Both the position numbers and the translations under genes were made by a program. DNA of 22,858 bases from Candidatus Woesearchaeota archaeon (GTDB taxonomy: Archaea > Nanobdellota > Nanobdellia > Woesearchaeales > UBA9642): contig JANNSE010000105.1 in NCBI GenBank assembly GCA_031402215.1, forward strand, positions 1 through 22,858. Direction: 5' to 3'. This document shows positions 608 to 22,038 of the stretch, piece after piece (positions within the stretch are counted from its first letter, which is position 1; each line of letters opens with the position of its first letter). The notes below the pieces were generated by a model. It ran no database searches. It saw only the letters and a program-made list of their open reading frames with translations, and was not told the DNA's origin.

Positions 608-1165
608 TCAGAACGATCCTTTAAGCAAATGTCTACCTAACCAAAGATATTCTAAGCCTGAATAGATAGTTATAATTGTAGCAACAAACATCAATACACC
701 GAAATAAGGAATATTAAGTATTACTGCACCTATTGCGAGCATTTGAACCCAAGTCTTAATCTTACCCGACATCTTTACAGGAATATCTGTGTTCTTAGTC
801 AAAGCAAGCATTCTTAGACCAGTTATTAATAGTTCTCTAGCAATAATCGTATAAGCCATCCAAGGAGCCACTCCTCGACCAATTAAAAACACCAATGCAG
901 CACATACTAATAATTTATCTGCAAGAGGATCGAGCATTGCCCCGACAGCACTAACTTCATTACGCTTTCTAGCTATGTATCCATCTAAAGAATCTGATAA
1001 GGCAATGATTGCAAATACTACAGTAGATATGATTGCATGATACTTTATGTCGCTTAATAGAACTACAATGAATACTGGAATCAGAAGTATTCTCGCTAAA
1101 GTGATTTTATTAGCTAAGTTAGAGATTCCTTTCGAACCATTTAATTTTTTATTTAACTTCTTCAT
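608..1165 (-). CDS. CDP-alcohol phosphatidyltransferase (PgsA-like; archaetidyl head-group transferase, specificity undetermined)
   Basis: 185 aa polytopic membrane protein with the family motif D-x2-DG-x2-AR-x8-G-x3-D-x3-D (DSLDGYIARKRNEVSAVGAMLDPLADKL). Its start overlaps the upstream gene's stop by 4 nt (ATGA). Confidence 0.85.
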   Translation of the reverse strand: MKKLNKKLNGSKGISNLANKITLARILLIPVFIVVLLSDIKYHAIISTVVFAIIALSDSLDGYIARKRNEVSAVGAMLDPLADKLLVCAALVFLIGRGVAPWMAYTIIARELLITGLRMLALTKNTDIPVKMSGKIKTWVQMLAIGAVILNIPYFGVLMFVATIITIYSGLEYLWLGRHLLKGSF

Positions 1166-1749
1166 TCTGTCTTACCAACTAATACATTATACCCTTTGAA
1201 TATATAAATTATTCCAGATAATAAAGTCATTACTACAGTCAAATAAATTAGTATGTCAATCCACAACGCATAATAACTATTAATCGCAGCAAGAATAAAG
1301 ACTACAAAGGTTGTTAATTGAAACGTTGTTGAAACTTTTCCAAAAATATTTGGAACTAAAGATTTTCTCTGATTCTTACGTAAAAAGAGTAGTCCGCCTA
1401 GTAATATAATTATATCTCTAGACAAAATTATTAGACCTACCCAGAGCGGAAAATTAAATGTAATTAATAACGCAACCACAGTACAAAATACTAAGACTTT
1501 ATCTGCAATAGGATCTAGTATTCTACCAAACTCTGTCTGCATGTTAAATCTTCTAGCAATTTGACCATCAAGAAAATCAGTTATAGAAGCAATTACAATA
1601 ACAATGAATGCTGCAATATACTTATTGTTTAACAATAAAATCATGAATACGGGTGCAAGAATCAATCTAAGCATCGTCAGGGAATTAGGTATGTTAAATT
1701 TGTTCTCTACAATATTTTTCGGTGATTTTTTTATGTGCTTCTTTTTCAT
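1162..1749 (-). CDS. CDP-alcohol phosphatidyltransferase, second paralog
   Basis: Carries the motif DFLDGQIARRFNMQTEFGRILDPIADKV. The ORF track starts at 1767, but the ATG at 1749 is preceded by GGTGA-N4 (plus strand tcacc at 1754-1758), so I prefer 1749. That start gives 195 aa, against 201 aa for the track ORF. Confidence 0.8.
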   Translation of the reverse strand: MKKKHIKKSPKNIVENKFNIPNSLTMLRLILAPVFMILLLNNKYIAAFIVIVIASITDFLDGQIARRFNMQTEFGRILDPIADKVLVFCTVVALLITFNFPLWVGLIILSRDIIILLGGLLFLRKNQRKSLVPNIFGKVSTTFQLTTFVVFILAAINSYYALWIDILIYLTVVMTLLSGIIYIFKGYNVLVGKTE

Positions 1750-1753
1750 TAGT

Positions 1754-2332
1754 TCACCATTTTTCATTTCTAATACGCAAATAAAATGCTGTATGATTAG
1801 ATAAGACGTGTAAAAAGAATGTTATTATAATAGAACAAAGGAACAACGTCCATGAAAGTTGAGCATACAAGAGAGGAACTACAAATATATATGCACCAAT
1901 AACCAAATCAATTTGGTCCCATGGTTTCAAACTTTCTCCAGGATTTACACTTAATCTTCTTTTGAAAAAACTTTCAATTAAATCGCCAGTAATAGCACCA
2001 AGACCCATTAACAAACCAAGTAATATGACTATAATATGACTAGTATAATCTATTCCGGGAATACTAATTTGTTGAAAGAAAAAAAATTGATATAAGAACA
2101 TCTGCAAATATGCTCCGATTATTCCTCCAATCGCCCCAACAACAAATCCTCTACAAGTCTTATTCGTACCGAATAAAGGTTTGCCATCTTTGAACTTTTT
2201 TCCTTTATCTACAGGAATATTTAGAAACTCTAGAAACTTAGCTTTTTTTACTAGTGGCGGAGCCATATTAGCAAAATATGCCGGTATCAAGAAGTAAGCG
2301 CTTTGCAAGAGCAATAATATAAAATCGTTCAT
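1754..2332 (-). CDS. carS: CDP-archaeol synthase (CarS, DUF46 family)
   Basis: 192 aa membrane protein. Blocks match my recollection of the CarS family: PVDKGKKFKDGKPLFGTNKTCRGFVVGAIGG, GAITGDLIESFFKRRL, WDQIDLVIG and a C-terminal HVLSNHTAFYLRIRNEKW. It is the first gene of an operon with two CDP-alcohol transferases. Confidence 0.8.
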   Translation of the reverse strand: MNDFILLLLQSAYFLIPAYFANMAPPLVKKAKFLEFLNIPVDKGKKFKDGKPLFGTNKTCRGFVVGAIGGIIGAYLQMFLYQFFFFQQISIPGIDYTSHIIVILLGLLMGLGAITGDLIESFFKRRLSVNPGESLKPWDQIDLVIGAYIFVVPLLYAQLSWTLFLCSIIITFFLHVLSNHTAFYLRIRNEKW

Positions 2333-17887: not shown

Positions 17888-20377
17888 GTGAAATATACAA
17901 TGGTAGAGGAGAAAGTTAAAGTTCCAAAAAGCGTAAGTGCAGATGATAGTAGAATCATTATGCAGACTGTCGAAGATGAGATGAAGAAATCTTATTTAGA
18001 TTACGCAATGTCAGTAATAATTGGAAGAGCACTACCAGATGTTAAAGATGGCCTAAAACCGGTCCATAGAAGAATTCTTTACGCAATGAACGAGTTAAGT
18101 AATACTTATAATAAACCTTACAAGAAATGTGCTAGAATTGTCGGAGAAGTACTTGGTAAGTATCATCCACATGGTGACACGGCAGTATATGATTCTTTAG
18201 TTAGAATGGCTCAAGAATTCTCATTAAGATATCCGTTAATACAAGGTCAAGGTAATTTTGGTTCTATAGATGGAGATTCCGCAGCAGCAATGAGGTATAC
18301 TGAAGCAAGATTATCAAAAATATCAGATGAAATGCTTCAAGATATTGAAAAAGAAACTGTTGAGTTTACTCCAAACTTCGATGGCACATTAAAAGAGCCT
18401 GTTGTTATGCCTTCTAGATTTCCTAATCTATTCATAAATGGAAGTAGCGGTATTGCTGTAGGAATGGCTACAAATATTCCGCCACATAATGTTACTGAAA
18501 TGTGTAATGCTGTTGTTGCAACAGTAGATAATCCAGATATAAGCACTGAAGAGTTATTATTAATTGTAAAAGGCCCGGATTTCCCGACAGGAGCAGAGAT
18601 AATTGGAAGAAAAGGAATTATTGATGCATATAACACTGGTCGTGGAAGTATAAGAATAAGATCTGTAATTGAAATTGAAGAAAAGAAAGAGCGTAAAAAA
18701 TTAGTTGTAAGAGAGATACCTTATCAAGTTAACAAAGCACAATTAGTAGAAGCAATAGCAGAATTAGTTAAGGATAAAAAAATTCCAGACATAAGCGATT
18801 TAAGAGATGAATCGGATAGAGATGGAGTAAGAATTGTTATTGAACTAAAGAGAGATTCTAATCCTGAAATTGTTAAAAATATGTTATATAATTATTCTAG
18901 ACTAGAAGATAGTTTCGGAATAAATGTTGTTGCACTTGTTAATAACGAACCAAAATTATTATCACTAAAATTATACTTAAGACATTACATAGAGCATAGA
19001 ATTGAAGTTATTAGAAAGAGATGTGTATTCGATTTGCGAAAAGCAGAAGAAAGAGCACACATACTTGAAGGATTAAAACTCGCATTAAAGCATATTGATG
19101 AAATAATTGCGATATTAAAGAATAGTAGAAGTGCTGATGAAGATGCTAAAGAAACTTTAATGGATAAATACAAGTTCAGCGAACCTCAAACTAATGCAAT
19201 CTTAGAGATGAAGATTAGAAGATTAGCAATGCTTGAACAGGAAAAGATTAACACAGAATATACTAATCTAAAACTAGAAATTACGGATTTAAAGGATATA
19301 TTAAATTCAGAAACTAGAGTTAGAAACATAATTAAGACAGATATGAGTGAAATTGTACAAACATATGGTAAAAATGATTCTCGTAAAACAAAGATTGTTG
19401 ATGTGCCTGATGAAGAATTAGATTATGAAATGGAAGATTTAATACCAGATGAAAACGTTGTAATAACATTATCTCACTCAGGATACATTAAGAGATTACC
19501 TATAGAAACATATAAAGTTCAGAATCGTGGTGGAAAAGGAGTAATTGCGTCTGATGTTAAGGATGATGATTACATCGAGAAACTATTTGTTGCAAGAACT
19601 CACTCCACATTGTTAATAATTACAAATAAGGGTCAATTATATTGGTTAAAAGTTTACAAGGTGCCTGATGCATCAAGACAATCACTCGGAAAAGCAATAG
19701 TTAACTTGCTTGAATTAGATGCTGATGAGAAGGTAAATGCTATAATCCCTGTAAAGGATTTTGATGATAAACACTTCTTAGTTATGGCTACTAAGTTTGG
19801 AACAATCAAGAAAACTAATCTAATCGAATTCTCAAATCCTCGTAAAGGAGGAATTGCAGCAATAAACTTAGATGATACAATCCAAGATAAACTAATCAAT
19901 GTAGTTATGACTGATGGAATGAAAGACATCATACTTGCTACTAAAAAAGGAGTGGCTTCAAGATTCAGCGAAGAAGATGTTAGAGCAACAGGAAGAACTA
20001 GTCAAGGTGTTCGTGGAATAAGATTAGAAGAAGGAGATAACGTTGTCGGAATGCTTATAGCAGAAGATACACATAAGATATTAACTCTTACTGAGAATGG
20101 TTTCGGTAAAAAGACAGAAATGACGGAATATAGAAAAATTAACAGGGGCGGTAAAGGAGTTATCAATATCATTTGTTCAGAAAGAAATGGAAATGTTACA
20201 GGAATACTTCCAGTCATGGATGATGATGAAGTATTGTTTATATCTAGAAAAGGAATTCTAATTAGAACATCATGTGATCAGATTTCTACAGTCGGTCGTA
20301 ATACACAAGGTGTAAGATTGATTAAGCTAGGCGCAACTGATAAAGCGATTAACATGACTAAGGTTATGAAAGAATAA
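17888..20377 (+). CDS. gyrA: DNA gyrase subunit A
   Basis: 829 aa. Hallmark motifs: [48 protein letters not shown], and C-terminal beta-pinwheel repeats ([16 protein letters not shown]). The track start is a GTG at 17888; an alternative ATG lies at 17900. Confidence 0.95.
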
Positions 20378-20439
20378 ATTATTTCTTAATTTTAATTAAA
20401 GTTATTAGAATTCTTATAAAAAAAATAAAAATAACCTAA

Positions 20440-21186
20440 CTTGTATCGATTTGTTGATTTTTTCAACTATTAATGTCCCGTCTTACTTGGATGTTCTCTA
20501 CTTGAACTCTAAAGTCTTCGCGTGTTTTTTGACGATTCTTGAAGTTGTTACAACGTGTTGTGTGTTTTAAGTTAATTGTTGTACGCCAATTTCAGTTCCC
20601 ATCTATTTGTTGCTATGAAGACTCCATTGTTGTTCTAGTTTTCTCATCAATACACACTGTTAGATGCGTATCGTTGTCGAACACTTTTTTTCAGGCTAAC
20701 TTTACCAAGTCCTTGTGCACTATTGTGCGAACTCGATTATAGTCTATACCTCAACATTTCGACACAGTTTGTAGTTAGGCATTTTTCTTTTTTGTTACTG
20801 TTGTCCTTTACGAACTGATGTTTCTTTGCCTTTTGTTTCTCTTTTTCCCGTTTTTGCTTTTTTTCGTCGTCTCTATTTTGGCTATTTGCCAAGTCATCTC
20901 TTCTATTTACATAAACTGAGTGTAATGGGCCCTCCTAAGATTTGGATTCCTAGGAGGTCAAGGATTGCGTGAATACTTTTCAGTATGATTGTGTATGGTT
21001 CATAACCATAAATACAAGTCTGGTTTAATGTAGAGTCATCCTCCACTTTTGAACGTTTCGGGAATAAAACCAAAGTCTTGCTTTCAGATCCTACTTTTGT
21101 TCGTAAATGACGTTTTCATATCCTTCTGTTTGGGGTCCACACGAGTGGACTTTGAAGGGTTGAAAGATTCGCTTAGCAATTCTTGC
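20440..21186. other. ORF-free block with coding-like composition (candidate ncRNA or heavily decayed gene)
   Basis: No minus-strand ORF of 60 aa or more. Hand counts give about 32-47% GC per 60-nt line, against roughly 20% in ordinary spacers here. The minus strand is purine/A-rich like the coding strands. Hairpins lie at 20931-20957, 20994-21010 and 21135-21150. Confidence 0.3.
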
Positions 21187-22038
21187 TTAACTCATCGTTT
21201 CTTGTAGGTTCATTAAAGTTTTATTCAAGTCTTCTAACTTCTCTGCTACTTTCGTTCCTTGTGTACTCGACCTTAGGAAGCTGTATTCTTCGTATAGTTT
21301 CTGTGTTGTCTTTGTACATTCAGCGATTGTTGCTGTTATTGACTCTTTTTTCCAATCCGCTTTTCTGTGATTGAATGCCTCTAGCATTTCAACCATTCTT
21401 GAGAGTGAAAAGTTGATACCGTTTAAGATTAGCTCTATTCGCAAGCTACTGTTCTGCTTTTGTTCCGCAGTCAATTTATTACTGGCATGATCAATGTTGT
21501 GTAAAGCAAGTTTAAGCATACTTAGTGATTGCTCAAAATTCTTAACTTCATTGGTAACCTTTTTGCTGCTTGTGATTTGCTCGTTAATGTTTTTTATGTC
21601 ATTTCTGAATATGTACATCTCCGAGATTGCGCTATTGGTTGATTCCTCGAAACTTAGCTCTTCAACTTCTTTTTCAAGCTCTTCCTGTTTGACTGCAACG
21701 ATTTTGGCGATAAACAATCCGAACAATGCAATACTAAAGATTGCTTCCAGAATTACTGCTAATTTTGAGTATCCGGATGGTGTTATGTCGTTGTAGCCTA
21801 TAGTCATTGCTGTAATAAAGCTGAAGTATAAGCTGTTTCCTAAACCATTTACATTTTTCGTTAATGGTTCGTTGTGGTATATTAGGGGTTGATTAATGAA
21901 TATTAATGCGAAATAAATTGCACCGAACAATATGATGCCTATGATCCATACTCCTATAACTTGAAGCAAACTAAGTCTGTCAAATACTTGAGTCCCTTTC
22001 ATTTTCGTTACGGATGCGTTGGATGTACTGTAATTCAC
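21187..22038 (-). CDS. Two-TM pore-loop cation channel (K+ channel family) with atypical filter and helical C-terminal domain
   Basis: 283 aa. TM1 is LLQVIGVWIIGIILFGAIYFALIF. The pore helix plus filter is LGNSLYFSFITAMTIGYNDITP. TM2 is LAVILEAIFSIALFGLFIAKIV. About 170 aa of helical/coiled-coil sequence follows, with no GxGxxG. The track start is a GTG at 22038; an alternative ATG lies at 22002. Confidence 0.75.
   Translation of the reverse strand: MNYSTSNASVTKMKGTQVFDRLSLLQVIGVWIIGIILFGAIYFALIFINQPLIYHNEPLTKNVNGLGNSLYFSFITAMTIGYNDITPSGYSKLAVILEAIFSIALFGLFIAKIVAVKQEELEKEVEELSFEESTNSAISEMYIFRNDIKNINEQITSSKKVTNEVKNFEQSLSMLKLALHNIDHASNKLTAEQKQNSSLRIELILNGINFSLSRMVEMLEAFNHRKADWKKESITATIAECTKTTQKLYEEYSFLRSSTQGTKVAEKLEDLNKTLMNLQETMS

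Follow-up and report, generated by a model that had tools for sequence, protein, structure and literature searches.

The window, that is, the whole stretch of 22,858 nucleotides that was analysed, lies on contig C105 of a 1.14-Mb Woesearchaeota genome (G000; 94% complete), and the genes on this contig include those encoding PCNA, an RNase J-like protein, an ScpB-like protein and GyrA. Elsewhere in the window (608-2332, minus strand), two adjacent CDP-alcohol phosphatidyltransferase-like ORFs are followed by a CDP-archaeol synthase-like ORF, as judged by motif inspection only. Between gyrA (17888-20377, plus strand) and a gene for a two-TM pore-loop channel (21187-22002, minus strand) lies a gene-free stretch, originally delimited as 20440-21186 and noted for its unusual composition. 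Most of what had been described there is borne out: GC content is 33-47% per 60-nt line (37% for the region against 32% for the window), 20821-20880 contains a single A, and there is no noteworthy ATG-started ORF, the longest frames lacking a usable ATG. The three predicted hairpins are also present; the first (20931-20957) and the third (21135-21150) are kept with changing sequence in homologs, whereas the second (20994-21010) falls within a variable segment and is not conserved. The longest open minus-strand frame had been put at 58 codons, but the stop-to-stop frames reach 70 codons (20903-21115) and 65 codons (20737-20934), the latter being the Lys/Glu-rich one. The purine skew that had been called coding-like stems from A-rich loops and linkers. 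A gap of this length is no rarity in the genome, where 19 internal stretches of at least 550 nt are free of any 75-aa ORF, so that the case for this one depends on conservation; unlike the length of the stretch alone, conservation together with covariation is beyond chance. Other ORF-free stretches, 800-930 nt long, were seen on contigs C122, C33, C103, C36, C46 and C8 of the same genome.

The channel gene encodes a protein of 271 aa starting at the conserved ATG at 22002, not at the GTG at 22038; this methionine is invariant among homologs, and a near-invariant 17-nt start-codon context (21998-22016, minus strand) is kept across the genus. The protein matches Pfam Ion_trans_2 (E 2e-13) and has the pore-loop architecture, with an all-helical C-terminal domain (model pLDDT 85.6) that is also present in outgroups lacking the RNA described below. 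A Foldseek search with the channel model gave no match at E 0.001 and no significant RNA-binding fold; the translin/C3PO rows were weak and correspond to generic helical bundles. The K+-selective TxGYG/GFG filter is absent. TIGYND occurs in the window channel (21790-21810) and in 33 of 51 close homologs, of which only 7 have the canonical GYGD filter, and outgroups have TTGFGD-type filters. Variants within the genus comprise TIGYND, TLGYGN, TIGYNN, TVGYSN, TIGSGN and TLGNGA, a drift that, as far as sequence goes, fits a changed role of the channel and proves nothing. A second full-length channel paralog, on contig C93, has no recognisable filter. Upstream of the channel gene, alignment of the homologous regions reveals a TATA-type promoter conserved genus-wide (22108-22097, minus strand) and a near-invariant palindrome without covariation (22074-22055, minus strand), which could be operator-like or a leader hairpin.

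The stretch is conserved in related genomes, with 74% identity over 750 nt in one of them (G006). Past the channel gene, each of the 13 genomes of the genus has 650-1100 non-coding bases in which the motifs come in the same order, and the RNA lies, as a single copy, directly behind the channel gene in all of these and in 17 further metagenome sequences; RNA-bearing genomes span 0.8-1.7 Mb. The 30 aligned sequences share 49-91% identity over well-aligned columns. The RNA is single-copy in the window genome, where no second copy was detected. The convergent gene on its other side differs among genomes, and gyrA, the convergent neighbour here, is not part of the unit, other genes intervening in many relatives. 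Two of these relatives have gyrA inteins (L134:4244-5813 and L138:4039-4823; 1000 and 1228 residues).

A search with a pattern consisting of one stem, with the channel gene disregarded, gave 62 matches, 29 of which had further motifs or context, all with the channel directly upstream. The remaining matches, in bacteria and viruses, had no channel gene and lacked the other motifs, and are chance matches; model R1 found nothing in 24 channel-less pattern matches. Nine more loci, fetched via channel homologs (45-68% identity), all matched R1 with 54-118 bits; the model had been built without seven of these. At a channel outgroup with 33% identity, R1 had no match. Two further models, one per domain, found the RNA in 13 of 13 genomes of the genus, but there was no convincing match among the 6 other genomes of the family and the 150 of the order that were searched; weak matches outside the genus (23-32 bits) lacked hairpins or context, and the three alignments inspected were chance-like. 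In sister lineages, the gene following the channel ortholog lies within about 70 nt. Judging by these searches, the distribution is confined to one genus of Woesearchaeota. Five loci (L072, L087, L089, L095 and L097) were deposited as Methanosarcinales or Alphaproteobacteria yet carry the Woesearchaeota locus; the submitter names look wrong.

This locus almost certainly encodes a conserved structured RNA. Helices were evaluated in an unsupervised, tree-aware scan in which compensatory events were counted as independent on the tree; a ranking by plain mutual information was dominated by the split into two clades, so the tree-based count was used. Six helices have at least four independent compensatory events each, whereas 100 column shuffles averaged 0.05 and never exceeded 1. 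All six also appear in the window sequence when it is folded to minimum energy, and three have a strand in coding sequence. Single-pair covariation counts are noisy; it is the helix-level test alone that stands clear of the null. Among the explanations first offered for the stretch, a long structured ncRNA is therefore supported by conserved, covarying helices. An old pseudogene is refuted: indels relative to the 10 closest homologs ignore the reading frame (67 of 349 are multiples of three), the stretch has no translated match in its own genome, the only one searched, and conservation tracks the helices; moreover, the 30-sequence alignment contains no ORF common to the homologs. An acquired or decaying island is likewise refuted, by an RNA and an intact channel ORF that are syntenic and conserved throughout the 13 genomes of the genus.

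The whole structured RNA, with predicted ends and strand, comprises about 980 nt (20425-21402, minus strand), as delimited by closing helices, the onset of synonymous conservation at 21408 and RNA contigs spanning 20445-21391; homologous RNAs, as excised, are 887-1333 nt long. The stretch from 20440 to 21186 is thus a real feature that had been drawn too short: it is the 3' three quarters of this RNA, which reaches to about 21402 and starts some 215 nt inside the channel ORF, with pairing that crosses the stop codon. The analysis establishes a conserved two-domain RNA of about 1 kb, in one Woesearchaeota genus, whose 5' domain is overprinted on the channel gene, over its final ~71 codons.

Domain I (21015-21402, minus strand; MFE z = -2.96) is multibranched and encloses the channel stop codon; the first 215 nt, at its 5' side, double as the final ~71 codons of the channel gene. 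Its long closing helix (21401-21379/21035-21015) comes from a single-sequence fold, with compensatory changes in homologs recognised by eye. Alternative local pairing is available (21395-21388/21375-21368), and of 21 folded homologs, 13 favour the distal and 6 the local partner for the first strand of the domain. Two covarying helices lie wholly within coding sequence (21345-21341/21231-21227 and 21338-21335/21238-21235, minus strand; jointly 21227-21345), with 8 of 9 pairs canonical in 23 of 23 sequences, two-sided changes, and 4 independent compensatory events each. The helix that joins coding to post-stop sequence (21226-21219/21069-21062, minus strand; 21062-21226) has 21 two-sided changes and 7 independent events. 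The third of the hairpins mentioned above belongs to the nested stems CCUUC/GAAGG and GUCCA/UGGAC (21122-21158, minus strand). Synonymous codons are about 0.45-0.57 identical through most of the channel ORF; among the five blocks that lead from 21408 to the stop (21408-21192), four have an identity of 0.64-0.74.

Between the domains, on the minus strand, the homolog alignment contains a near-invariant single-stranded box, ACGCAAUCC (20962-20970), for which no pairing partner was found. A GC-rich hairpin of variable sequence (20931-20957, the first of the three originally predicted) is present in all homologs by eye. The A-rich linker (20790-20925) varies from 47 to 383 nt in length and contains the repeated motifs AGYRAYRAC, GGGAAAAAGAG and GGCAAAGA. 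Thirty-nine copies of AGYRAYRAC, against 1.0 expected, were found in 23 of 30 linkers, at one to three per linker; the motif is absent from the other seven, including that of the window genome. GGCAAAGA is represented in 24 of 30 linkers, and CAUAACRA, the motif preceding the channel start codon, recurs at different places in 13 of 30 RNAs. GGGAAAAAGAG has changed place, being found in the linker in one clade (20841-20851 of the window) and in a Domain II loop in the other (L016 and L017). Five homologs (L017, at about 1180-1290, L012, L010, L046 and L051) carry one or two insertions of a small hairpin unit with a TCAC..CGTTCG core immediately ahead of the invariant box; these units are possibly miniature repeat elements.

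Domain II (20432-20781, minus strand; MFE z = -6.19) has a closing helix (20779-20751/20457-20435), side hairpins, a covarying core helix (20744-20739/20470-20465) and a further helix (20696-20692/20484-20480). In its core, 90.4% of the cells are paired and 16 of 24 pairs show two-sided change, a score that exceeds those of 500 of 500 shuffles and all slid controls but is inflated by derivation of the structure from the same sequences; two core helices have 10 and 8 independent events. A pseudoknot pairs GUUAG with the hairpin loop CUAAC (20700-20696/20663-20659, minus strand; 20659-20700). It is paired in 94.8% of cells and nearly invariant, with one two-sided change, so that its support comes from complementarity more than from covariation. 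Right behind the closing stem, a U-rich tract (20414-20431, minus strand), matched by a T-tract at this place in most homologs, is likely to be an archaeal terminator by sequence. Scans for sigma-70 promoters and intrinsic terminators carry no information for an archaeon.

The RNA is very probably encoded on the minus strand. When helices were chosen by Watson-Crick pairs only, G-U outnumbered A-C on this strand (65 versus 28); the folding z-scores are negative on both strands, so the strand call taken from the folds is moderate. The promoter of the channel gene is the only conserved one upstream of the RNA, and the homolog alignment has no conserved TATA at 21410-21450. No downstream gene is co-oriented with the RNA, and convergent genes follow the U-tract. 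The RNA overlaps the channel ORF and lacks its own promoter, and for that reason the suggestion of a very long 3' UTR retains some plausibility.

Six RNA runs hold part of the locus. In four of these, from four metatranscriptome studies, assembled contigs, which carry no strand, true ends or levels, cover 20445-21391 of a 10-kb stretch, limits that agree with the structural ends of the RNA. The RNA contigs are those of related strains; some are 99% identical (0-2 differences over 100-220 nt), and one shows adapter run-in at 21391, which would fit a 5' end at this position but is a single record. Beyond the covered part, the channel ORF is represented by one contig (depth 2.3), and other genes mostly by short foreign pieces, though a part lacking contigs need not be silent. 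The runs were picked using this stretch, and conserved RNA sequence maps more easily than diverged coding sequence. The contigs are a hint of a stable abundant RNA, short of proof; on balance, the RNA is rather likely to be a separate stable species.

Comparison of the window (E up to 10) and 12 homolog loci (E up to 5) with Rfam gave chance matches only. RNase P and SRP RNAs of this genome score over the cut-off elsewhere, on contigs C34 and C1, respectively, and neither a tRNA-like domain or tmRNA nor SmpB was found. A group II intron or retroelement was rejected on the lack of D5 geometry and Rfam match, with RVT_1 not found in the 94% complete genome. TnpB omega-RNAs and other sense-overlapping transcripts, as well as 3'-derived sRNAs, are comparable in being structured, in overlapping the 3' end of their own protein gene on the sense strand and in being released by processing, the last of these a proposal for the window RNA. 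Compared with TnpB omega-RNA, the window RNA is five times longer, has an ion channel as its partner gene and no transposon ends, and is not mobile. Group I introns have a P3-P7 core with an invariant G-C guanosine site. The candidate P7-like helix here (20744-20739/20470-20465) changes freely and matches no model; the channel ORF is complete, there are no flanking exons, and the U-tract and convergent genes follow. All 39 reported archaeal group I introns, Woesearchaeota included, are in rRNA genes (PMC6125680); these are likewise large pseudoknotted RNAs, from the same lineage, but the window locus lacks flanking exons, a core match and a homing endonuclease. The RNA was not found in phage or viral collections, and a literature search with limited coverage of subscription journals found no paper describing it or such an RNA in Woesearchaeota.

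The best explanation, to which we assign a probability of about one half, is that processing of the channel transcript releases a stable RNA which, by analogy with OLE RNA, serves as a scaffold for proteins. In Bacillota, ole and oapA are in tandem, and OLE RNA is abundant, membrane-localised and tied to ion stress (PMC9723947). Like it (PMC9723947, PMC12286853), the window RNA is a large, many-helix RNA encoded in tandem with a membrane-protein gene; it may be abundant too, given the selective contig cover in four metatranscriptomes, although contigs do not give levels. The two differ in that the window RNA has no sequence or model match to OLE, is archaeal, is longer (~980 versus ~600 nt), is limited to one genus, and lies behind and overlaps its membrane gene, which encodes an Ion_trans_2 pore-loop channel rather than OapA; the likeness is one of analogy only. 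One transcript would run from the conserved channel promoter to the U-tract, with the RNA as its 3' half. Because Domain I cannot stay folded under translating ribosomes, the 5' part would be lost, by trimming or by a cut, as far as the long closing helix (about 21402), and a stable abundant RNA would remain. Domain II would be the pseudoknotted core of a ribonucleoprotein scaffold, the repeated single-stranded motifs candidate protein sites, and the channel with its drifted filter a candidate protein partner, like OLE with its tandem membrane protein. The overlap in itself forces a link between RNA and channel, however, and that link may be a matter of history and not of function.

The main rival, appreciably less probable, is a 3' element that controls the channel mRNA in cis and in which Domain I would switch between local and long-range pairing in response to translation or a ligand and set termination, stability or translation of the channel message, while Domain II protects or senses. 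The obligate overlap, the pairing across the stop codon and the lack of an own promoter are all as expected for such an element, as is the first strand of Domain I with its distal (13) or local (6) partners among 21 folded homologs; tight control of the channel gene is evident from its leader and start-codon context, both strongly conserved. Since translation must unwind Domain I, the domain can be folded only in a processed product or while the message is not being translated. However, at about 1 kb and with several invariant single-stranded boxes, the RNA is large for such an element, neither leader-to-3' pairing of at least 6 bp nor any conserved pairing with the leader was found, and the RNA contigs end near the structural 5' end instead of running on through the ORF.

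Size and a pseudoknotted core with conserved junction nucleotides could also suit a ribozyme, a domesticated intron-derived RNA or an RNA-only multimer, and the duplicated complementary strands of Domain I might pair between molecules. The ROOL and GOLLD RNAs, the latter often over 800 nt, are of the same size class, with linker-joined domains and long-range pairing (PMC12286853), but the window RNA has no match to their models, is a chromosomal single copy that overlaps coding sequence, and has no phage or tRNA-island context. This group of readings is unlikely, considering that no Rfam match (window and 12 homolog loci) or 3' exon was found, that the P7-like helix varies where group I introns keep G-C, that D5 geometry is lacking, and that the 94% complete genome yielded no reverse transcriptase and the viral and phage collections no copy. 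A decoy that titrates a regulatory RNA-binding protein, like CsrB, appears slightly less likely still: the enrichment of AGYRAYRAC (39 copies versus 1.0 expected, one to three per linker) and the scattered recurrence of CAUAACRA in 13 of 30 RNAs point to it, but copies are few per molecule, AGYRAYRAC is missing in 7 of 30 linkers including that of the window genome, and the two conserved folded domains are left unexplained. A plus-strand antisense RNA, a DNA-level element such as an origin, or a decayed gene is highly improbable, since the possible promoter site in the AT-rich gap behind gyrA, the strand-blindness of Watson-Crick covariation and the better-than-shuffled folding of both strands are outweighed by the excess of G-U over A-C, the U-tract and the conserved promoter, which all favour the minus strand, and by presence in RNA libraries, helices spanning 300-400 nt and indels that ignore the frame.

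The window RNA belongs with the large ornate RNAs: a structured RNA of kilobase size, hitherto undescribed and restricted to one genus of DPANN archaea, that overlaps an ion-channel gene and has a putative function. Going further, and speculatively, it might represent a new class of kilobase archaeal RNAs, born by overprinting a channel gene, that assembles with the filter-altered channel or gates channel synthesis through refolding across the stop codon; we consider this fairly unlikely. If true, it would be an RNA-channel particle in a DPANN symbiont that originated independently of bacterial OLE. The narrow distribution and the uncultured host limit the reach of the finding, and the RNA is a ready target for structure probing and cryo-EM. 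Large ornate RNAs (OLE, ROOL, GOLLD) have been described from bacteria and phages, whereas this one is archaeal. It is a datable example of a large RNA that emerged, or changed beyond recognition, at the root of a single genus, partly via overprinting. An RNA of about 1 kb that constrains some 70 codons and is retained by genomes of 0.8-1.7 Mb must have an effect visible to selection.
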